IMG/VR virus record: IMGVR_UViG_2636415959_000005
Reading direction: 5' to 3' (one strand)
DNA length: 40,716 nucleotides
Source: a virus
Lineage: Duplodnaviria > Heunggongvirae > Uroviricota > Caudoviricetes
Below the pieces are notes generated by a model. That model made no database searches, was not told the DNA's origin, and saw only the letters and a program-made list of their open reading frames with translations. Shown here one piece after another: positions 2,249-34,813 of this stretch. Each line of letters starts with the position of its first letter. The first letter of the stretch is position 1. A program made the translations under genes and the position numbers.

Positions 2249-3960
2249 TTATAGTAGTCTGGTAATGCTAAATGCAAACGAACTGGAGATTCCTGCTCCG
2301 CTAAGCGTATTGCGCAGGGTCACCCTAAATGTATCTACGCCAATATAAGTAACATCACAACTAACTGAATCAGGCGCAGATATAGGTGTTATCTGAACCA
2401 CATAACCATTAGTAGCTGCTGCGAGCGGATGAGAAAACGTTACATCATACACACCAGTAGCTACCACGCTTACTGAGGACACACCTGGAGCCACATCAAT
2501 GCTGCCATTCGAGTTAATCCTTCCAGAACGAGTAATACTTCCAGCAGAGACAGAAGTAGCCTTGCTGGTTTGCTCCATGAAAGTACAGCCAATATCAATT
2601 ACTTCGCAGTTAGAGCCTGTAACCCAATACGGTCGCGAGGCGCTTGGGACGTAAGAACCTACGCTCTTGAATGTCGTACCATTGAGAATTACAGTTACTT
2701 TTCCACCGCCAGAGCTTGTAATATTTAAGTTGTTTATGGTGTACATCGTACTGCTAACACGATGGAAGTTGCCGCCGTTAATAATTACGGTGACGGGGCG
2801 CGTTCCCGTGTTATCAATGCCAAGGTCAGAACCACCAGCGTTAGCCTCAAAATATGGGTTATTAAGTACCAAAGCACATGACCCATTAAGACCGTTCACG
2901 GCAATCTGCATACCGCCAGTGCCAGTATTACCTTGCGTGCCGTTACCCTCACAGGTAAGGCTATTGATGGTAGTCCCTGCGCCCCATCTGTCACCAAGTA
3001 TACCCCATTGTGTATTCTGGCTTGCGGTTAATCTGTTGACAGTAATTGCATTAAGTTCTGAAAAATCATCAGAATTAAGCACTCGCCACCCAATACGATT
3101 TGCCTGCAGGTACACATTATCCAATTCAGAAGTCAATACAGCGTCTGTTCGTAAACCTTCGCCGTTGGTATGTCCGTAAGATACTATATTCTCTAACTTG
3201 GCATATGCTTTCTTGGTTACGAGAAGACCGTAAGACGTTGCTGAGCCTTTAAGCGTAATATTTCCGAGATAATCATACGCATGTACTCGCTGTGTGCCAC
3301 CAACTGTATCACCGAGCATCTTTAAGTTGAAATCCGAGGCATGGCAGTTAAATATCGTTTCTGCCATATTTTCTCCGGAATAATGAGCACGGACTCCTGT
3401 CGAACCAATAAATTTAGCGTCATAGTTGCCGTAATCAAGAACGAGTGGTGACGCGATATCGTACACCCCTTGCTTTATTTTTAATGTTCCACCGAAAGGC
3501 CACGATGTAAGCGGGTCTTGATATATTTCATTTTTTATTGCAAATAGCTCCTCTTGGAGATTTTTGCCGCTATTAGTGCCAATGTGAGCAGCTCCTTCAT
3601 CTGATTGAAGTAACTGCTTTAACTGATCAGGATCGTACTTCAGCACATTCTGAAAATAGAACTGCTGCGAACCATACGCATCATATACAGCCATTGAATG
3701 GCCTTGCTCAGTTACAAATTTGGCAATCTGCCCGTTGTACACAGGATATCCGGCAGCATTGATAACAATTGGCTGAGAAACAGGGACGTGAGATCCGTCT
3801 TCATTCTCTACATAAACCTGAATCTGGTTTTCAGGATTTACCGGGTCAGTGTCAATTTTTCCGATATAAATTTTGCCATTGGCTACGGCTTTAAAAGAAC
3901 GCGCCATAGTGAAGAGTTGCGAAGGCATGCTTACCACAATATTTGCGGTGATATCTGACA
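2249..3960 (-). CDS. Tailspike protein (P22 gp9-like N-terminal head-binding domain, distinct receptor-binding domain)
   Basis: N-terminus [13 protein letters not shown]…[13 protein letters not shown]…LKYDPDQ matches the P22 tailspike head-binding domain; start set at MSDITAN (track ORF runs to 4009). Confidence 0.85.
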
Positions 3961-4082
3961 TTTCATTGCTCCAGACGAATGATATGATGCAACCATGATG
4001 TGATTGCATACCGAAATGGTACTATTGAGTATTTATCCAGTAAGTTACGATGCCATTCCACCCAACTGGTGAGGCATCAAGG

Positions 4083-4343
4083 ATGTACAGCAAATACGAC
4101 GAGGCGCAGTTTCACTTGAGACTTCCGCATGAACTCCACGCGAAAATTAAACAGCGCGCGAAGATGAATAACAGGTCGCTGAACTCAGAGATAATTGCAG
4201 CGATTGAAGAATCATTGGCTAAACAAAGCTCTGCATCAGTTTACATTGACGATGCAGAGCGTATGGCAGAACAACAATCCGATATGGTTAAGAAAATTGT
4301 CTTTGATACGCTCAAAGAGCTATATAAAAAAGACAGCAGCTAA
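4083..4343 (+). CDS. mnt: Mnt-like ribbon-helix-helix repressor (P22 immI-type), orphan
   Basis: Aligns with P22 Mnt as I recall it (…NNRSLNSEIIAAIEESLAK…DAERMAEQQSDMVKKIVFDTLKELYKKDSS); start set at MYSKYDE. Confidence 0.8.
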   Translation: MYSKYDEAQFHLRLPHELHAKIKQRAKMNNRSLNSEIIAAIEESLAKQSSASVYIDDAERMAEQQSDMVKKIVFDTLKELYKKDSS

Positions 4344-4363
4344 CTATCAGTTACGGAGGATTT

Positions 4364-4441
4364 ATGCAAAGAGATATGCTGAATATTGCGTTCTACATAT
4401 TTGGTTTTTGCACGTTCCTGGTGTTTGCGAAGCTATTCTGA
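4364..4441 (+). CDS. Possible 25-aa hydrophobic peptide (MQRDMLNIAFYIFGFCTFLVFAKLF) downstream of mnt
   Basis: ggagga Shine-Dalgarno 4 nt before the ATG; single predicted transmembrane helix; overlaps the 3' end of the gp16-like gene on the other strand. Too short to support by homology. Confidence 0.25.
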   Translation: MQRDMLNIAFYIFGFCTFLVFAKLF

Positions 4442-6430
4442 CAACGCATCAGACTTGGCACCTTGAGTCAGGGCGTTAATGGCCTTTTGCGCCTGCTGCA
4501 TGGCTTTCTCAAACGCTGTTGATCCGCGCGGGGTGTTTGCCATTCGGAGCATTGCATTTCTGAATGGCTCGCTCTCATAGGCGCGAGTAAGAAGTCCGTA
4601 GCTTACTGCTGCGCCAGTTGTCGCCGGGTTCATTGCCGTCCCATACCCAATAATGAACGGGATAGTTTGCTGCCCTGTGGGTGTTGTTACTGCCGCTTTT
4701 GCAGCCTGCTGCGTGGATTGCAGGTAGTTTTTTAATCCCTTCAGATAAGCAGCGTCCTGCCCCTTAAATGTGATGCCAGTCTGGTTTTGCAGGATGTTAA
4801 GCTGCCGAAGGAACTGGTCAGGGGATCCGCCAGATTTCTCCATCGCCTTTCCAATGATGCCATTGCGCATTTGCGCCCTGCCAACACGACCAACTGAGTT
4901 ATACAGCGTCTTAATTTCAGATTTGTTCTTGCTGAATAGCATGTTGTTGACAACTTCCGGCGTCAGATCGCCTTTCATGAGAACATTCTTCAGCCTGGTA
5001 TTCTTTAGTTTCGCTGCTTCGTCAGCGTAGACGGCATTGGCCTGCTGATATTTACGGAGAGTATCGTTGCCAAGATTCTGACCAATGGCACCATTGATAT
5101 CGTCGGTCATTGCCTTGTAAACGCGCTGAATGGCAGCATCGGAACGGTTTGGTAACACTGGTCGCTCACCCTTCACGTCCATTCTGAACTGGCTGCGCAG
5201 ATCGCTTAATTGCTTCAAATCCAGATTAACCGGACCATCAGGGCCAGCATTGCGAACAAGCTCATCACGATATGACTGAAGTTTTGAAATTGTCTCGTTA
5301 TCAGCTACCTTACCAAGCTTCTGCAGATTAGATATTTCTGTATCAATCTGCTGAATTGCTCGCGCAGGCTGAATGTTTACTCCAGCCATAGCATTCTGAA
5401 CCTGCTCCAGTCGATTACCGGCGGCACGACGAATTCCTGATGTTTTCGCTTTAAGACTGTCAATAACAACAGATGGATCATACTCACCGAATTTATCAGC
5501 AAATCTCTGCACCAACTGGCTTCTCGCTTCCTGTTGCGTTGCTCTCATTCCGCTTGTGCCAGCCAGGGGGATATTTTCTGCTGTAGTCTGCGCCATTTTT
5601 CCGACGCGGGAAGTGGGTTGTAACAGGTCTGTGGTGTGCAGAGGAACTCCTTCACGCTCTGCAAATCTGATAGCCTGCTGCGCTTCTGGCGCGATAGCAC
5701 CACGAACGCCACGATAAGCAGCACCTAATCCACGTCCGGCAGCGTTAATAGCACCGCCAGCAAGTACACCAACGCCTAAATCGGTGGCGAGTGCTTCCGC
5801 ATCATCTTTCGCACTATTTGCAGCAAGTGATCCAACTGCGTTTTCTGCTAGAAGGCGGGTTGCCCCCTGAGCAATTCGACCAGCAAGTGTTGGTGCCTGT
5901 GCTGCCGCTCTCTCAACGCCAGCAGGAGTGAGGTAAGGCAATGCTTCAGCAAATACCCTTCCCTCTGTCGTTTGTGGAGTCAGCGCACCTTGCTGAAGGC
6001 CAAAGTCCTGCTCTAATCCCTGCGTTGTTACTCGTGGTGCTGGTTGATATGTTCCATCGCCAATACCGAGTTTACCTCCGGCCCAAGCCGCCGCGCTTGT
6101 TACAGCATCGGCAACTGATGCAGGTATGTTTGCCACGTTCACGCCAGCCTGCACCAGTCCGCGACCAGTTTCTTTCACGGCTTCACCAAGATCAGACATA
6201 AATCCACTTTGCTGTGGTTGTTGCTGTGATACTGGTTGTTGTGTCTCCACTGGCTGCACAGATGGCAATGGATAGGCAGCATAGAAAGCTTGCTTAGCCT
6301 GCTCTGCATTTTCTCCGGCTTGCGGGGCAACGACTTCATTGAAGTATTGCTCCTGAGCCTGCGCTTTTTGTTCTGGTGCTAACGCCTGATACTGTGGAGA
6401 GGCGATAACATCTTTCCATGCTTTAGCCAT
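4433..6430 (-). CDS. Ejection/DNA-transfer protein (P22 gp16-like)
   Basis: 665-aa ORF in the conserved position and order of the P22 ejection proteins; Ala/Gly/Gln-rich. Confidence 0.7.
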   Translation of the reverse strand: MAKAWKDVIASPQYQALAPEQKAQAQEQYFNEVVAPQAGENAEQAKQAFYAAYPLPSVQPVETQQPVSQQQPQQSGFMSDLGEAVKETGRGLVQAGVNVANIPASVADAVTSAAAWAGGKLGIGDGTYQPAPRVTTQGLEQDFGLQQGALTPQTTEGRVFAEALPYLTPAGVERAAAQAPTLAGRIAQGATRLLAENAVGSLAANSAKDDAEALATDLGVGVLAGGAINAAGRGLGAAYRGVRGAIAPEAQQAIRFAEREGVPLHTTDLLQPTSRVGKMAQTTAENIPLAGTSGMRATQQEARSQLVQRFADKFGEYDPSVVIDSLKAKTSGIRRAAGNRLEQVQNAMAGVNIQPARAIQQIDTEISNLQKLGKVADNETISKLQSYRDELVRNAGPDGPVNLDLKQLSDLRSQFRMDVKGERPVLPNRSDAAIQRVYKAMTDDINGAIGQNLGNDTLRKYQQANAVYADEAAKLKNTRLKNVLMKGDLTPEVVNNMLFSKNKSEIKTLYNSVGRVGRAQMRNGIIGKAMEKSGGSPDQFLRQLNILQNQTGITFKGQDAAYLKGLKNYLQSTQQAAKAAVTTPTGQQTIPFIIGYGTAMNPATTGAAVSYGLLTRAYESEPFRNAMLRMANTPRGSTAFEKAMQQAQKAINALTQGAKSDALSE

Positions 6431-11925: not shown

Positions 11926-13179
11926 TTACTGCCCGGCAATAACGATGCCCGTATATTCAGGAACCAGTACAGAGCAACCGTACAGAGTGGTGAAACGCGC
12001 AGTGGTTACGCCTTTGATATGGTCGAAGGCGTAAGACATGATCAGCGTAGCGCCCTGCTCGGTGGTTGCTGTCATTACCTGTGGACCCTGACCAGTCGGG
12101 AACGCCAGTTTGCCGTACATCAGTTCAACAGAACCATCAGCCCAGAACAGGTTAGCCGGTGCGGCATTTTTGTTGAGAATGGTGATTGCTGCGCTACTTG
12201 CCGCATTAGCATCAACGTTTGCATATGGTTGGCTGGCGACATCCGCGTTGTCAGGCGGCAGAATTTTCGGGGAGATGGTTACTGTCGTTCCGCTCACTGC
12301 CAGAACGCGGAATACCTGCGGCTGCCCGGTGGTATCTTTGGTGATCTGGTGTACAGAATTCACCCCTGCGATGGTAAACGCATCGCCAACCTGCAAACCT
12401 TCAGCAGATACCGTAATGGTCCCCTGTCGGTTATCCACTGGCATATCGTTAGCATCTTTCGCTTCAACCTTGTGCGCAGGTGCTGCCGCCAGCGTAATGG
12501 AAGTTGCTGTACCCTTCGGAACACGACCAGAAATATCGGTCTTGTAGCTATCGAAGGACGCAACCGGAGGGATCTGCGCTTTTTCGTATGCTGTCAGGGT
12601 TGCGCCCTGAGCATAGGCACGGTGACCAAGCTCGCCAGCAAGGTCTTTGTAGTTGAAGGGATTCCAGAAAGAGCGACGGTTGATACCCTGAGGTACACCA
12701 ATCGCCGTCATGGTGGCATCAATACCTGCCGCGCAGTTCCACAAATCACGGCCCTGTGTACCTGTGGTTGAGTCAGCCATCGTGATCACGTTAGTAGCAC
12801 GCTGCGTGACCATGGAAATCAGGTCAGAGTCAATCTGTGCAGCAAGGCGCATACCTGCGGCTCGACCAGCTTCAGTTTTATGTTCCGGGTCACGCATTTC
12901 ACGCGCATCCAGAGTGTACAGAATGTTTTTTGGCTCCTTGAACACGGAAGGAACAAGGCGCTGAACCAGTGCGGTAGGCGTTTTGCTGCTGAGATCGAGG
13001 CCTTCCTCAATGTTCATGTGGTAATGCTGCGGACGATACAGAACATCGCCTGCTCGCTGCATTGCAGTATCACCGGGACGGAATTTTTTAGCGTTACGGG
13101 AAACTACGCAGGCGGCCTCAAAGCCTTCAACGTAGTTTTCGAACATGATTTCAAGGTCTTTTGCTAATTGGTTAGCCAT
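11926..13179 (-). CDS. Major capsid (coat) protein, P22/Sf6-like
   Basis: 417-aa ORF following the scaffold gene; size and order match the P22-like coat protein. Confidence 0.85.
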   Translation of the reverse strand: MANQLAKDLEIMFENYVEGFEAACVVSRNAKKFRPGDTAMQRAGDVLYRPQHYHMNIEEGLDLSSKTPTALVQRLVPSVFKEPKNILYTLDAREMRDPEHKTEAGRAAGMRLAAQIDSDLISMVTQRATNVITMADSTTGTQGRDLWNCAAGIDATMTAIGVPQGINRRSFWNPFNYKDLAGELGHRAYAQGATLTAYEKAQIPPVASFDSYKTDISGRVPKGTATSITLAAAPAHKVEAKDANDMPVDNRQGTITVSAEGLQVGDAFTIAGVNSVHQITKDTTGQPQVFRVLAVSGTTVTISPKILPPDNADVASQPYANVDANAASSAAITILNKNAAPANLFWADGSVELMYGKLAFPTGQGPQVMTATTEQGATLIMSYAFDHIKGVTTARFTTLYGCSVLVPEYTGIVIAGQ

Positions 13180-18966: not shown

Positions 18967-19488
18967 TTAAATGATTTGCCAGTCTTCTGCTAGAACATCA
19001 GTCTGACTAGCCAGCCACGGCACTAATTTATCGTCCGCTGTTTTCATGGCGATATACGGAAGTTGTTTCGGAGATCGTTTCGATTCTCCATGCGTACCTT
19101 CAGGCAACTCAAAGACGCGACTGCAAAAGCAAGGCGTACTGCCAGTATGAACAGCCTCAGTGTACGGTTTAACGTATGCCAGCCACATGCCCTTACCATT
19201 CCAGCCAGCACGGGCAACTTTATTCCCCAACTTGAGCGCTTCAATGGCAAGGCCGAAACTTAGCCCTGATACCGGACGATAAGCCTTTTCGAATACTTCT
19301 TTTGGACTCCAGCTAACGTAGCCATCAAAGCGATCGGTGTTAGGTTTTCCGCCATCAAGATATTCAACCAGATAGCCTTCATCCTCGCCGTTTTCTCCGG
19401 CAGGAAGCTGCCAGCCACGAAAATCGTTATATGCCTGTCTCGTCATCGGAAAGGCGTTAATCAGTTTTACGCCAATATGCTGGGTCAT
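18967..19488 (-). CDS. Two-domain hypothetical protein; C-terminal half resembles the DUF2829 family
   Basis: 173-aa ORF; C-terminal motifs (…ALKLGNKVARAGWNGKGMWLAY…PWLASQTDVLAEDWQII) resemble DUF2829 as I recall it. Not verified by profile search. Confidence 0.45.
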   Translation of the reverse strand: MTQHIGVKLINAFPMTRQAYNDFRGWQLPAGENGEDEGYLVEYLDGGKPNTDRFDGYVSWSPKEVFEKAYRPVSGLSFGLAIEALKLGNKVARAGWNGKGMWLAYVKPYTEAVHTGSTPCFCSRVFELPEGTHGESKRSPKQLPYIAMKTADDKLVPWLASQTDVLAEDWQII

Positions 19489-27480: not shown

Positions 27481-28128
27481 ATGAAAACGATGCATGAAAT
27501 TATCGGGGAAAGGATCAAGTCCCTTAGAGAAGCTAAAGGACTTAGCCAGGCTCAATTGGCCAAGCTTTGCGGCTGGGCTGCGCCTTCACGCCTGGGGAAC
27601 TACGAGTTAGGAACAAGAAAGGTTAGCGCGGATGACGCGCTGGTTCTTGGGGCGGCACTCGGCGTATCTCCGGCAAAAATAATGTTTGGCGAGGATTCAG
27701 ACGCCGTATTTCGCCAATATGAATACCCGTTATTTTCTTCAGTGCAGGCCGGGCCATTTTCGGAGGTGGGAAGCTACACAGCCAGCGATGCAAAGGCATG
27801 GGTCCCAACGACCACAAAAGCCAGCGAAAAAGCTTTCTGGCTTGAGGTGAAGGGGCATTCAATGACGGCGCCTCAGGGGGTTCGTCCAAGTTTTCCGGAA
27901 GGCATGCTGATACTCGTTGATCCGGCTGAGCCGGTAGAGTCTGGGGATTTCTGCGTGGCTTCTGCAAATGGTGATTCAGAGGCAACGTTCAAGAAGTATG
28001 AGAAGGATGCAGGGGTTAGTTACCTGGTACCTTTAAACCCGGCATATAGAACCCTGGATTGCGACCATAGCTGCCGCATCATAGGCAAGGTAGTTAAGGC
28101 GCAGTGGCCTGAAGAGACGTTTGGCTGA
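27481..28128 (+). CDS. cI: CI repressor (novel N-terminal HTH domain, lambda-like S24 C-terminal domain)
   Basis: 215 aa; C-terminal part (…[15 protein letters not shown]…[14 protein letters not shown]…QWPEETFG) resembles lambda CI; N-terminal part does not. Alternative start at 27490. Confidence 0.9.
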
Positions 28129-28240: not shown

Positions 28241-29080
28241 ATGAAGAATGGTTTTTATGCGACTTACCGCAGCAAAAATAAAGGGAAAGATAAGTGCTCA
28301 ATAAACCTGTCTGTTTTCCTTAATTCTCTGCTGGCTGATAATCATCACCTGCAGGTTGGCTCCAATTATTTGTATATTCATAAAATCGATGGAAAAACTT
28401 TTCTCTTTACCAAAACAAATGACAAGAGTCTGGTTCAGAAGATAAATCGCTCTAAAGCTTCAGTTGAAGATATTAAGAACAGCCTCGCAGATGACGAATC
28501 ATTGGGATTCCCATCTTTTTTGTTTGTTGAAGGCGACACCATTGGTTTTGCCAGAACTGTTTTCGGGCCGACCACATCCGATCTGACAGATTTTTTAATC
28601 GGGAAAGGAATGTCATTAAGCAGTGGAGAGCGCGTTCAGATAGAGCCACTGATGAGGGGAACCACCAAAGACGATGTTATGCATATGCATTTCATCGGCC
28701 GAACAACGGTGAAGGTAGAAGCCAAGCTACCTGTATTTGGCGATATATTAAAGGTCTTAGGGGCAACAGATATTGAAGGGGAGCTTTTTGACTCATTGGA
28801 TATAGTCATTAAGCCAAAATTTAAAAGGGATATAAAAAAGGTTGCCAAGGATATTATTTCTAACCCGTCACCTCAATTTTCAGACATTAGCCTGCGGGCA
28901 AAAGATGAGGCCGGAGATATTTTAACAGAACATTATCTATCAGAAAAAGGCCATCTCTCAGCGCCTCTGAACAAGGTCACCAATGCTGAGATAGCTGAAG
29001 AGATGGCATATTGCTACGCAAGAATGAAAAGTGATATACTGGAATGTTTTAAAAGGCAGGTGGGCAAAGTTAAGGATTAA
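28241..29080 (+). CDS. rexA: RexA (Rex abortive-infection/exclusion system sensor)
   Basis: 279 aa; translation matches lambda RexA as I recall it (MKNGFYATYRSKNKGKDK…QVGKVKD). Confidence 0.9.
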   Translation: MKNGFYATYRSKNKGKDKCSINLSVFLNSLLADNHHLQVGSNYLYIHKIDGKTFLFTKTNDKSLVQKINRSKASVEDIKNSLADDESLGFPSFLFVEGDTIGFARTVFGPTTSDLTDFLIGKGMSLSSGERVQIEPLMRGTTKDDVMHMHFIGRTTVKVEAKLPVFGDILKVLGATDIEGELFDSLDIVIKPKFKRDIKKVAKDIISNPSPQFSDISLRAKDEAGDILTEHYLSEKGHLSAPLNKVTNAEIAEEMAYCYARMKSDILECFKRQVGKVKD

Positions 29081-29095
29081 TTATCAGGAGTAATT

Positions 29096-29530
29096 ATGCG
29101 GAACAGAATCATGCCTGGTGTTTACATAGTAATAATTCCTTACGTTATCGTAAGCATTTGCTATCTCCTTTTCCGCCACTACATTCCTGGTGTTTCTTTT
29201 TCAGCTCATAGAGATGGCCTTGGGGCGACATTGTCATCATATGCAGGAACCATGATTGCAATCCTGATTGCTGCCTTGACGTTTCTAATCGGAAGCAGAA
29301 CGCGCCGACTGGCCAAGATTAGAGAGTATGGGTATATGACATCGGTAGTTATTGTCTATGCCCTTAGTTTTGTTGAGCTTGGAGCTTTGTTTTTCTGCGG
29401 GTTATTGCTTCTTTCCAGCATAAGCGGCTACATGATACCCACTATCGCCATCGGCATTGCCTCTGCATCGTTCATTCATATATGCATCCTTGTTTTCCAA
29501 CTATATAATTTGACCAGAGAACAAGAATAA
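29096..29530 (+). CDS. rexB: RexB (Rex system membrane protein)
   Basis: 144 aa polytopic membrane protein; matches lambda RexB as I recall it. Confidence 0.9.
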   Translation: MRNRIMPGVYIVIIPYVIVSICYLLFRHYIPGVSFSAHRDGLGATLSSYAGTMIAILIAALTFLIGSRTRRLAKIREYGYMTSVVIVYALSFVELGALFFCGLLLLSSISGYMIPTIAIGIASASFIHICILVFQLYNLTREQE

Positions 29531-33134: not shown

Positions 33135-33842
33135 ATGGATTTGAATAAATTCGATGAGCCATTCAGCCCTGAAGATATCGAATGGCGAATACAGCAAAGC
33201 GGTAAAACACGCGATGGAAAGGTGTGGGCTATGGTGCTGGCTTATGTCACGAACAGGGCAATCATGAAACGCCTGGACGATGTTTGCGGCAAAGCAGGAT
33301 GGCGCAATGAATACCGCGATATTCCCAACAACGGCGGCGTTGAATGCGGCATATCAATAAAGATTGATTCCGAATGGGTAACCAAATGGGATGCTGCTGA
33401 AAACACGCAGGTAGAAGCCGTCAAAGGTGGTCGTTCCGGTGCAATGAAGCGCGCTGCCGTTCAGTGGGGAATCGGTCGGTATCTGTATAACCTTGAGGAA
33501 GGTTTCGCACAAACATCTATCGATAAAAAGCAGGGGTGGCACAGGGCAAAACTGAAGGATGGAACAGGATTTTACTGGCTCCCTCCATCGCTTCCGGGAT
33601 GGGCAATCCCAGCATCAGATAACAAACCATCACCAGAAAATACCAACCAGAAATCTCCATCGGTTGACTGCGAACAAATCCTGAAAGACTTCAGCGATTA
33701 TGCGTCAACAGAAACTGACAAGAAAAAACTCATCGAGCGTTATCAGCGTGACTGGCAATTAATGGCTGGCAACGAGGAGGCGCAGGCTAAATGCGTTCAG
33801 GTAATGAACATCAGAGTTAACGAACTAAAACAGGCGGCATAA
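33135..33842 (+). CDS. Single-strand annealing protein, Rad52/Sak-like (functional analogue of lambda Bet)
   Basis: 235 aa; motif …GGRSGAMKRAAVQWGIGRYLYNL… typical of phage Rad52-family annealing proteins; gaggtg RBS. Confidence 0.65.
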   Translation: MDLNKFDEPFSPEDIEWRIQQSGKTRDGKVWAMVLAYVTNRAIMKRLDDVCGKAGWRNEYRDIPNNGGVECGISIKIDSEWVTKWDAAENTQVEAVKGGRSGAMKRAAVQWGIGRYLYNLEEGFAQTSIDKKQGWHRAKLKDGTGFYWLPPSLPGWAIPASDNKPSPENTNQKSPSVDCEQILKDFSDYASTETDKKKLIERYQRDWQLMAGNEEAQAKCVQVMNIRVNELKQAA

Positions 33843-34310
33843 ATGTATCACTTGGACGGAATTATTAAAAGATTCGAGTCCAGCTACAAAGTTAATGAAA
33901 CAACAGGTTGCTGGGAGTCTACCTATTCAAAAAACAAAGGAGGATACACAAAATTTGTAGCCTTTGGCGTAACAATGCTTTCTCATCGTGTTGCTTTTGA
34001 GCTTTATCACTCCCCCATTCCATCTGGGAAGATGGTTTGCCACAAATGCGATAACCCATGCTGCGTTAATCCTGAACATCTCTTTTTAGGTAGCGCGCAA
34101 GAAAACATGGACGACAAGATAGCAAAAGGAAGGCATCGTGGAGCCAAGAAAGGTCATGCTCATCATGGTGCAAAATTAACAGAGTGGCAGGTTATAGAAA
34201 TTAGGAAAAGACTCTCTGAAAAAGAGAGTCAGTACAAGATAGCAAAAGACATGGGTGTATCTCAATCAATTATAAGCAACATAAAAACTGGCAAGAGGTG
34301 GAGCAAATGA
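33843..34310 (+). CDS. HNH endonuclease with C-terminal DNA-binding region
   Basis: 155 aa; HNH signature [44 protein letters not shown]; overlapping start and stop with neighbours. Confidence 0.85.
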
Positions 34311-34813
34311 GTTCTCGCGGGATAAATAAGGTGATTATCCTTGGTCGGGTAGGACAAGACCCGGAAGTTCGATACTCACCATCAGGAACAGCGTTCGCTA
34401 ACCTGACAATAGCCACGTCAGAACAATGGCGAGATAAAAATACTGGCGAGCAAAAGGAATTGACTGAATGGCATCGTGTTGCTGTATCCGGGAAACTGGC
34501 TGAGGTCGTGGGGCAGTATGTGAAAAAAGGTGATCAGATTTATTTCGAGGGAATGCTGAGAACCAGAAAGTGGAAAGACCAGTCAGGGCAAGACCGTTAC
34601 ACAACCGAGGTTCATGTCGGAATTAATGGCGTGATGCAAATGCTTGGCGGCATTGGCGACAGCAAACAACAAGCAGCCAGCAGGCAATCACAGAAGCCAC
34701 AGCAGCAATCATCACCAGCACAACACAACGAACCTCCGATGGATTTTGACGACAATATACCCTTTGCACCAGTAACTCTCCCCTTCCCTCGTCACGCTAT
34801 TCACGCAATTTAA
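34307..34813 (+). CDS. ssb: Single-stranded DNA-binding protein (SSB) with C-terminal extension
   Basis: [23 protein letters not shown]…TEWHRV…[17 protein letters not shown] parallels E. coli SSB; acidic tip [11 protein letters not shown] is followed by 15 more residues. Confidence 0.9.

Follow-up and report, generated by a model that had tools for sequence, protein, structure and literature searches.

An orphan mnt gene and a conserved 25-codon open reading frame in a probable reduced ant moron of a P22-like Escherichia coli prophage

In P22-like phages, the ant moron is a variable insert, expressed from the prophage, that lies between the ejection gene 16 and the tailspike gene 9. The name was given to the region by Villafane et al. 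2008, who described it as being in rapid flux (PMC2629481). In the P22 version, immI, a divergent promoter, Pant, drives arc and ant, an antisense RNA is encoded by sar, and the repressor gene mnt is transcribed the other way; in the morons of ST64T, ST104 and Para1 only mnt and one unknown gene are present (PMC2629481), phage L is likewise mnt-only (Zaworski et al. 2020, PMC8022706), and Sf6 has been described as lacking an ant moron (PMC2629481). The locus analyzed here comprises positions 3962–4441 of a 40,716-nucleotide viral sequence (IMG/VR record IMGVR_UViG_2636415959_000005; the whole of this sequence is referred to below as the window). Its plus-strand genes, between a tailspike gene and a gp16-like gene on the other strand, are an mnt homologue and a 25-codon open reading frame (ORF), hereafter the small ORF, and we consider it probable that the locus is a reduced ant moron of a P22-like prophage, built from two evolutionarily separate parts that would form one operon. 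The absence of arc and ant beside mnt had been presented as a peculiarity of this locus, however, the published cases above make it a common state, and judged by gene content the arrangement is not new.

The locus shares with immI the slot between genes 16 and 9 and the orientation, mnt being transcribed against the late operon, as well as a homologous two-domain Mnt, the position of the putative operator and the geometry of the mnt promoter, Pmnt. It differs in lacking arc, ant and sar and in having only an 8/12 vestige of Pant; furthermore, the putative operator is of the form TACC-N5-GGTA instead of GGTCCAC-N-GTGGACC, and sieA and orf59a of P22 are missing, mnt being followed by the small ORF instead. 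The mnt-only morons of ST64T, ST104, Para1, L, Sf101, IME10 and Gally, like the locus studied here, have mnt alone near the tailspike gene; however, the Salmonella members of this group have an Mnt of a different specificity type (AGACCAC-N-GTGGTCT), and mnt is followed there by a late-strand lipoprotein-like gene (orf62) and not by the small ORF. Sf101 carries the same mnt but has a different gp16 homologue (911 aa) and lacks the small ORF, whereas Sf6 carries the same 25-codon ORF (MQRDLLNIAFYIVGFCTFLVFAKLF) in the 164-bp spacer between its genes 13 and 14, in the same register and with the same overlap with the end of gene 13, but has no mnt, 38 nt of other sequence lying upstream instead.

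The assignment of the first gene as a bona fide mnt, made in the initial annotation, is borne out by both of its domains. The product has an N-terminal Arc-like ribbon-helix-helix (RHH) DNA-binding domain (Pfam Arc, PF03869, E = 7.5e-15) and a C-terminal coiled-coil tetramerization domain (Repressor_Mnt, PF11423, E = 3.4e-14), matches the structures of the corresponding Mnt domains in PDB entries 1MNT (N-terminal domain, E = 3.4e-19, residues 6–79 aligned) and 1QEY (tetramerization domain, E = 1.7e-8), and is 48.8% identical to P22 Mnt. Its start is best placed at 4083, because a GAGG motif lies 8 nt upstream, the N-terminus aligns with those of P22 and ST64T Mnt, and PGAP assigns the same 86-aa start in E. 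coli genomes; an alternative reading from the ATG at 4050 (97 aa) is also open, and would overlap the promoter. The β-strand residues that we take, from what is known of Arc and Mnt, to contact the bases are Q9/H11/R13 here and H6/N8/R10 in P22 Mnt, and this difference fits the difference between the two operator sequences.

For an assessment of conservation, 86 unique versions of the segment from operator to mnt were compared, drawn from IMG/VR and annotated records. The gene is intact in 84 of these; the variants differ at the C-terminus, giving proteins of 84, 86 and 88 aa, while the DNA-binding half is almost unchanging, and among the 86-aa forms pN/pS amounts to 0.17. These sequence comparisons indicate that the orphan mnt is kept under purifying selection. 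The exact 86-aa protein is found on at least 1,000 contigs, where it is recorded as 'Arc family DNA-binding protein'. RefSeq phage records, in turn, call Mnt homologues, P22 mnt included, 'partition protein ATPase' (for instance locus L002, 3201–3494; L004, 2492–2743; L005, 2182–2430), and PHROG 795 bears the same name; the label is a propagated misannotation of a ribbon-helix-helix repressor.

That mnt stands without arc or ant holds for the whole element, as first claimed. Searches of the 40.7-kb window by tblastn with P22 Arc, P22 Ant, JEP4 KilA and JEP4 Rha gave nothing below E = 0.1, no antirepressor domain was detected in Pfam scans of 30 further window ORFs, and an arc/ant pair located elsewhere, for which the whole prophage was examined, was not found. 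The immI arrangement, with a divergent Pant driving arc and ant and a sar antisense RNA, does not occur in the window, and no Rfam match was obtained at gathering thresholds over its full length. There are 121 bp between the divergent starts of the tailspike gene and mnt, and 89 bp from the mnt stop to that of the gp16-like gene, so that the distances given earlier, 122 and 90 bp, are right to within one base pair and each one too many. In Sf101, ST64T, L and Gally, mnt likewise stands alone about 120–150 bp from the tailspike start, with a dyad and a promoter retained. IME10 has the same mnt-only layout. Over positions 3850–4560, the nearest phages are IME10, with 96.6% identity across the full length, and Sf101, which is 98.6% identical as far as the mnt stop; the published description of Sf101 does not mention mnt.

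A search for dyad operators near 4010–4082, suggested in the initial annotation, led to the TACC-N5-GGTA element listed in Table 1, which we predict to be the Mnt operator. In a column-by-column alignment of CATACCGAAATGGTACT with P22 Omnt (AGGTCCACCGTGGACCT) and the corresponding dyads of ST64T, Gally and JEP4, the half-site CC and GG are unchanging in all five phages. The putative operator ends 1 nt ahead of the −35 hexamer of the Pmnt-like promoter, as it does in P22 (TTGAGT here, TTGAGA in P22), and this promoter is the positional homologue of the annotated P22 Pmnt. In the window a single TACC-N5-GGTA is present where 0.12 would be expected; in a search of the prophage for further operator copies, just one site with two mismatches was found, at 12408, consistent with chance. 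Across the 86 versions, the leader and promoter region 4023–4082 is conserved as strongly as the coding sequence, whereas 3962–4007 is variable.

On the opposite strand, a relaxed hexamer scan returned a weak vestige of Pant (8/12), the predicted start of which lies inside the operator and which is directed toward the tailspike gene; a stricter promoter scan gave none at 4028–4056, and the equivalent stretch in JEP4, read by eye, has no usable −10 element. The spacer of the Pmnt-like promoter (4031–4045) carries a 2-nt deletion relative to JEP4 (locus L007) and ST64T (locus L005), in both of which it is 17 nt long, and a short spacer is also seen in IME10 and Sf101. The deletion should weaken Pmnt and shift the register of the vestigial leftward promoter.

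Two roles had been put forward for an Mnt without ant. Of the proposed regulation of the tailspike/oac region, the part that concerns oac can be set aside, since this gene lies on the other strand beyond the tailspike gene, where it cannot be reached from the operator; the tailspike gene may be regulated, the leftward promoter that faces it being weak (8/12) and not conserved in JEP4. The other role is suggested by the biology of P22, in which the Mnt of the prophage represses the ant gene of a superinfecting P22: on its own, the orphan Mnt would then confer immunity by repressing the ant promoters of superinfecting relatives, and so protect the prophage from antirepressor-driven induction. 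The purifying selection on Mnt and the retention of the operator agree with such a role, and the resident repressor, a CI/LexA-type protein, is a plausible target for an Ant protein. However, no target was found among the matches listed in a scan of IMG/VR for ATACCGAAAYGGTAC, which were classified, where a Mnt gene lies downstream, together with the loci collected otherwise. In all 144 of these operator-plus-Mnt instances the operator faces a tailspike head-binding domain, encoded immediately upstream on the opposite strand, and in 0/144 does it face Arc or Ant. The same Mnt DNA-binding type does co-occur with Ant-like genes in HS1 (a prophage of E. coli HS; locus L310, 25463–30140), where the Ant-like gene encodes a P22AR_C protein, and in JEP4 (locus L007, 2498–4689), where KilA and Rha are encoded. 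In both, mnt separates these genes from the operator, which faces the tailspike gene, and they run toward mnt and are not transcribed from the operator; a separate gene for a helix-turn-helix (HTH) protein lies beside the Ant-like gene of HS1, and a gene annotated 'repressor protein C2' is found on the far side in JEP4. Furthermore, the recognition residues are Q/H/R here as against H/N/R in P22, and the operator is unlike those of P22, ST64T and Gally, therefore cross-repression of the known ant phages is unlikely. We regard a guard function against incoming ant genes as improbable.

As far as can be judged from gene order, this Mnt type seems to be uncoupled from ant control in general, the stable unit appearing to be mnt, operator and tailspike gene, and the orphan Mnt is probably functional, as a unit linked to the tailspike junction. 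Candidate roles for it are the silencing of the weak leftward promoter, control over the amount of its own transcript, and the tuning of late read-through into the tailspike gene, a role that has been suggested for P22 (PMC2629481).

The strong ribosome-binding site and 25-codon hydrophobic ORF that had been noted directly after mnt are both present, and the ORF is conserved. It starts 20 nt past the mnt stop, and its final 9 nt overlap the end of the gp16-like gene, covering the last two codons and the stop on the other strand. The encoded peptide has a grand average of hydropathy (GRAVY) of 1.2, rising to 2.06 in the core formed by residues 5–21. Its conservation was examined in 80 IMG/VR loci collected by means of the C-terminal 155 aa of gp16 alone, which avoids circularity, and 79 of these were long enough. 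An intact ATG, 24 sense codons and a stop are present in 79/79, and the copies, with that of the window, comprise 35 unique nucleotide versions without indels. By parsimony on a neighbor-joining tree, 87 substitution events have occurred in the ORF (lower bound 47); about 9% of random substitutions would break the start, the stop or the frame, and the probability of seeing none such is ~3e-4 to 0.012. The events are distributed over the codon positions as 35, 19 and 33, with 30 synonymous and 57 non-synonymous changes (dN/dS ~0.45). Residues 9–21 (AFYIFGFCTFLVF) and 24–25 are nearly fixed, and variation is found at residues 2–8 and 22. A degenerate-codon scan, combined with the fetched loci, raised the number of unique versions to 51; a divergent copy beside a divergent gp16 (locus L208) has four synonymous and two non-synonymous changes in codons 1–9, which lie outside the ascertained core.

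The start of the small ORF is marked in two further ways. A purine-rich Shine–Dalgarno (SD) sequence precedes the ATG in five unrelated upstream contexts (GGAGG, AAAGG, GAGATGAG, GGGTGGAGGG and AAAGGGGGA), and many of the BLAST matches that 3962–4470 has in complete E. coli genomes begin at query position 402, i.e., at 4363, 1 nt before the ATG. The match in E. coli W (NC_017635.1:2623054–2623562) is 98.4% identical. In the 12 Sf6-type spacers compared, the mnt cassette (4010–4363) stands in for the 38 nt that precede the ORF there; those of Sf6 include a TATGAT that resembles a −10 element and an SD rich in GAG. The gene that precedes the ORF in Gally encodes a lipoprotein-like protein of 171 aa. 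The initial annotation had noted the small ORF directly after mnt. The two are adjacent here, but they are not partners, the ORF occurring without mnt in Sf6 and mnt without the ORF in Sf101, and by these comparisons the small ORF is part of the moron's gp16-proximal end and lies directly after mnt only incidentally.

The small ORF is carried by 315 of 5,426 complete E. coli genomes (~6%) and by six GenBank phages, and among 185,579 species representatives it is confined to Escherichia. It is annotated nowhere, none of three common variants of the peptide occurs in a 15-billion-protein collection, the peptide sequence was sought in the literature without a match, and the peptide has no match in Pfam, PHROG, NCBIfam or PADLOC. 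An ORF with 100% identity is also present in two 4.83-Mb assemblies labelled E. coli 'DH5alpha' (H156 and H157; NZ_CP026085.1 and NZ_CM135829.1), the first of which also contains mnt and a head-binding tailspike gene; since standard K-12 derivatives should lack this prophage, these assemblies are lysogenized or mislabelled strains.

Some of these observations would also suit an untranslated element, i.e., a function at the DNA or RNA level past gene 16 (such as an antisense late transcript), or a sequence that hitch-hikes with the 3′ end of gp16. The missing annotation and the absence of the peptide from the protein collection would then need no explanation, the narrow distribution and the lack of a clear promoter in the Sf6 context would be in keeping, and dN/dS of ~0.45 has weak significance if transitions are strongly favored. 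However, every gp16-anchored frame has stayed open through 47–87 substitutions without an indel, whereas neighboring non-coding DNA has indels, and neither the SDs in five unrelated contexts nor a mosaic junction exactly at the ATG is expected of it. Synonymous changes accumulate at a rate comparable with that seen in gp16, and therefore there is no extra constraint at the nucleotide level. RNA folding of 4330–4480 was not better than that of shuffled sequences on either strand (z = −0.66 and −0.39), and Rfam gave no match at E ≤ 1 over 3900–4600. An untranslated element is thus to be kept in mind as a rather unlikely alternative. The open frame, the SD and the smaller number of non-synonymous changes per site (dN/dS 0.45, p = 0.002–0.15) are the usual signs of coding sequence, and we favor the view that the small ORF is a functional gene as the likelier one.

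If so, it most likely encodes a peptide that is made by the prophage and spans the inner membrane once. The initial annotation had seen in it the size and composition of a small membrane toxin. Its length and single hydrophobic helix do resemble those of the type I toxins TisB, ShoB, Ibs, Ldr and DinQ, and RHH proteins are common antitoxins, Mnt itself giving weak Pfam matches to the HicB and FitA RHH domains; one could thus conceive of a toxin–antitoxin-like module in which the 25-aa peptide is a type I toxin, or is controlled or neutralized by the RHH protein. The resemblance goes no further than size and hydrophobicity. Unlike those toxins, the small ORF has no antisense or adjacent small RNA, no promoter of its own, no structured leader and no family match, PADLOC and NCBIfam included; no promoter or terminator was found on the opposite strand at the ORF, Rfam detected no small RNA, the SD is strong and exposed and not sequestered, and the ORF is predicted to be co-transcribed behind unrelated genes. 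Nor do the two genes form the obligate pair of a type II system, as they are separable both ways, with the ORF lacking mnt in the Sf6-type arrangement and placed behind a lipoprotein-like gene in the Gally type, and mnt lacking the ORF in Sf101. We consider a toxin–antitoxin module very unlikely indeed.

A parallel may lie in the P22 moron itself, where the same slot is occupied by sieA, which is expressed from the prophage, encodes an inner-membrane protein and runs convergently to gene 16. Its product acts on the gp16/gp20 conduit (Leavitt et al. 2024, PMC10883804), which makes a membrane peptide linked to one gp16 type a suggestive parallel. By this analogy, our guess is that the peptide has an accessory role at the membrane or one in superinfection exclusion. 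The two proteins are otherwise dissimilar, SieA having 164–213 aa, several membrane helices and a cytoplasmic motif, whereas the small ORF encodes 25 aa with one helix and no motif; adjacency to and convergence with gene 16 are shared, the multi-pass architecture of ~160–210 aa is not, and the sequence similarity is weak and inconsistent. A bolder version of this idea, to which we give only a slender chance, is that the ORF encodes a minimal inner-membrane protein of one helix, which forms the invariant core of the moron wherever gp16 is of the Sf6 type, Sf6 itself included, and which acts on the gp16/gp20 conduit of incoming P22-like phages as a micro-counterpart of SieA.

The same position and orientation, found for sieA in both P22 and HS1, raise the question of whether the small ORF might descend from a sieA that once stood in the slot by gene 16, as what is left of its last transmembrane helix. 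A local alignment to residues 128–147 of P22 SieA scores 35, as against 22.5 ± 3.8 for shuffled sequences (p ~ 0.005). However, there is no DNA similarity to P22 sieA (p = 0.11), the match to the type B SieA of E. coli HS1 is not significant and is best on a different helix (p = 0.09), and the peptide lacks the conserved SieA motif FxRYPxEAxxFNK (PMC10883804). An ATG, an SD and a frame of its own in every copy are, moreover, unexpected for a relic, and such an origin is highly improbable.

Taken as a reduced ant moron, the locus would work as follows. Its first part is the mnt cassette at 4010–4363 with operator, Pmnt and mnt, from which arc and ant are absent and in which repressor and site are under selection. 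In the lysogen, a Mnt tetramer would sit on the 17-bp site at 4007–4023, abutting the −35 element of its own promoter, and the bound protein would cover the site at which transcription from the vestigial leftward, Pant-like promoter begins, and would set the level of the rightward transcript. The second part is the 25-codon ORF, a constant gp16-proximal element of the moron in phages with an Sf6-type gp16, and compared with Sf6 the mnt cassette would have replaced the 38-nt upstream region that belonged to the ORF. Given the gap of 20 nt to mnt, the lack of a terminator and the GGAGG, the small ORF is predicted to be the second gene translated from the mnt transcript.

Several observations weigh against this reading. 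The operator is symmetric at only 4 + 4 positions, compared with 8 + 8 in P22, and the Pmnt-like promoter has a suboptimal spacer of 15 nt and a hexamer score of just 8/12. In the Sf6-type context the small ORF is not preceded by a convincing promoter, a conserved −10-like element (TATGAT, TATAAT or TAAAAT) being all that is seen. The synonymous excess in the ORF is moderate, with a binomial p of 0.002, 0.06 or 0.15 for kappa values of 1, 3 and 5. In one stop-loss variant (locus L152; IMG/VR 2713896831_000006, ORF ~224), TGA has changed to AGA and the frame reads on antisense into gp16; this is the only disrupted or extended TGA-terminated copy among ~190, the divergent copy of locus L208 being one codon longer (26 aa). 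No peptide family is detectable, so that the proposed role is one suggested by position.

The features of the locus and the two flanking genes are listed in Table 1.

Table 1 Features of the locus between the tailspike and gp16-like genes (positions in the window)
Feature	Position	Strand	Description
Tailspike gene	2249–3961	−	570 aa; P22-type head-binding N-terminal domain; last gene of the late operon
Imperfect dyad ATGCAACCA-N5-TGATTGCAT	3987–4009		In the tailspike leader; probably not a Mnt operator
Putative Mnt operator CATACCGAAATGGTACT	4007–4023		Core TACC-N5-GGTA at 4009–4021; positional homologue of P22 Omnt
Pmnt-like promoter	4025–4051	+	−35 TTGAGT (4025–4030), 15-nt spacer, −10 TACGAT (4046–4051); hexamer score 8/12
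Weak Pant vestige	4028–4056	−	−35 ATGGCA (4056–4051), 17-nt spacer, −10 AATACT (4033–4028)
mnt	4083–4343	+	86-aa ribbon-helix-helix repressor with Mnt tetramerization domain; SD GAGG at 4071–4074
SD of the small ORF, GGAGG	4355–4359	+	4 nt before the ATG
25-codon ORF MQRDMLNIAFYIFGFCTFLVFAKLF	4364–4441	+	Predicted single-pass membrane peptide; conserved, unannotated
DNA-ejection protein gene (P22 gp16/Sf6 gene 13 type)	4433–6430	−	665 aa; PHROG 770

Residues 1–113 of the tailspike protein correspond to the P22 head-binding domain (Pfam Head_binding, E = 2.3e-65), and its N-terminus is homologous to those of the Sf101, IME10 and Sf6 proteins. The product of 4433–6430 matches PHROG 770, 'DNA transfer protein', with E = 1e-239, and is equal in length to Sf6 gp13.

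The imperfect dyad in the tailspike leader was considered as a Mnt operator and rejected: the spacer in which it lies varies across the 86 relatives, it is located 5′ of the start of the cassette homology (4004–4007 in several E. coli genomes), and JEP4 has nothing that corresponds to it. It is capable of forming a hairpin and is built around GATGCAAC...ATTGCA, motifs that are common to Sf6-type spacers; the latter (loci L012, L023, L083 and others) pair these motifs differently, in a stem GGACAAG/CTTGCCC, and an IME10 variant turns the dyad of the window type into a perfect one (9/9). The dyad could be a structure of the late mRNA just 5′ of the tailspike ribosome-binding site.

The window contains the whole P22-like E. 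coli prophage and ends in host genes on either side, a ybhB-like PEBP gene at 1–477 on the left and a ybhC-like pectinesterase-family gene at 39433–40716 on the right. Its gene content includes a lambda-type integrase, a CI-like repressor, RexA/RexB, N, CII, O, DnaB-type replication genes, nin genes, Q and a P22-type late operon, i.e., a P22-like virion module is combined with lambda-like integration and immunity. From the flanks at 1–477 and 38228–40716 and from the integrase, which is of lambda type with an arm-binding domain, we infer integration at the lambda attachment site (att-lambda). Homologues of RexA (E = 6e-97) and RexB (E = 9e-92) are encoded at 28241–29530 (+), directly 3′ of the CI-like repressor gene at 27481–28128, as in lambda. 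Between the lysis genes and the small terminase gene, a 173-aa ORF at 18967–19488 (−) has a Tad2-like (Thoeris anti-defence 2) domain (PF11195, E = 2e-25), and the equivalent slot of HS1 holds a Rha-family gene. An HNH endonuclease gene at 33843–34310 (+; PF13392, E = 1e-13) is inserted in the early-left operon between the genes for a Rad52-like recombinase (33135–33842) and a single-stranded DNA-binding protein, SSB (34298–34813).

The orphan Mnt by itself adds little to a documented state of a fast-changing phage region. What extends beyond the literature is that selection acts on this Mnt type and its operator, and that they are always found beside the tailspike gene, even where Ant-like genes sit elsewhere; therefore, mnt-only morons may be working units and not decaying remnants (cf. 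the suggestion made for phage L). The second extension is an unannotated 25-codon ORF for a predicted membrane peptide, which occurs in ~6% of the complete E. coli genomes and also in Sf6, a model phage, and in every case is located at the end of the ejection-protein gene. By the sequence comparisons presented here it is a credible, unannotated and narrowly distributed small gene, and, if translated, it would provide a new prophage-expressed micro-protein in the slot that in P22 is occupied by the injection-blocking SieA.

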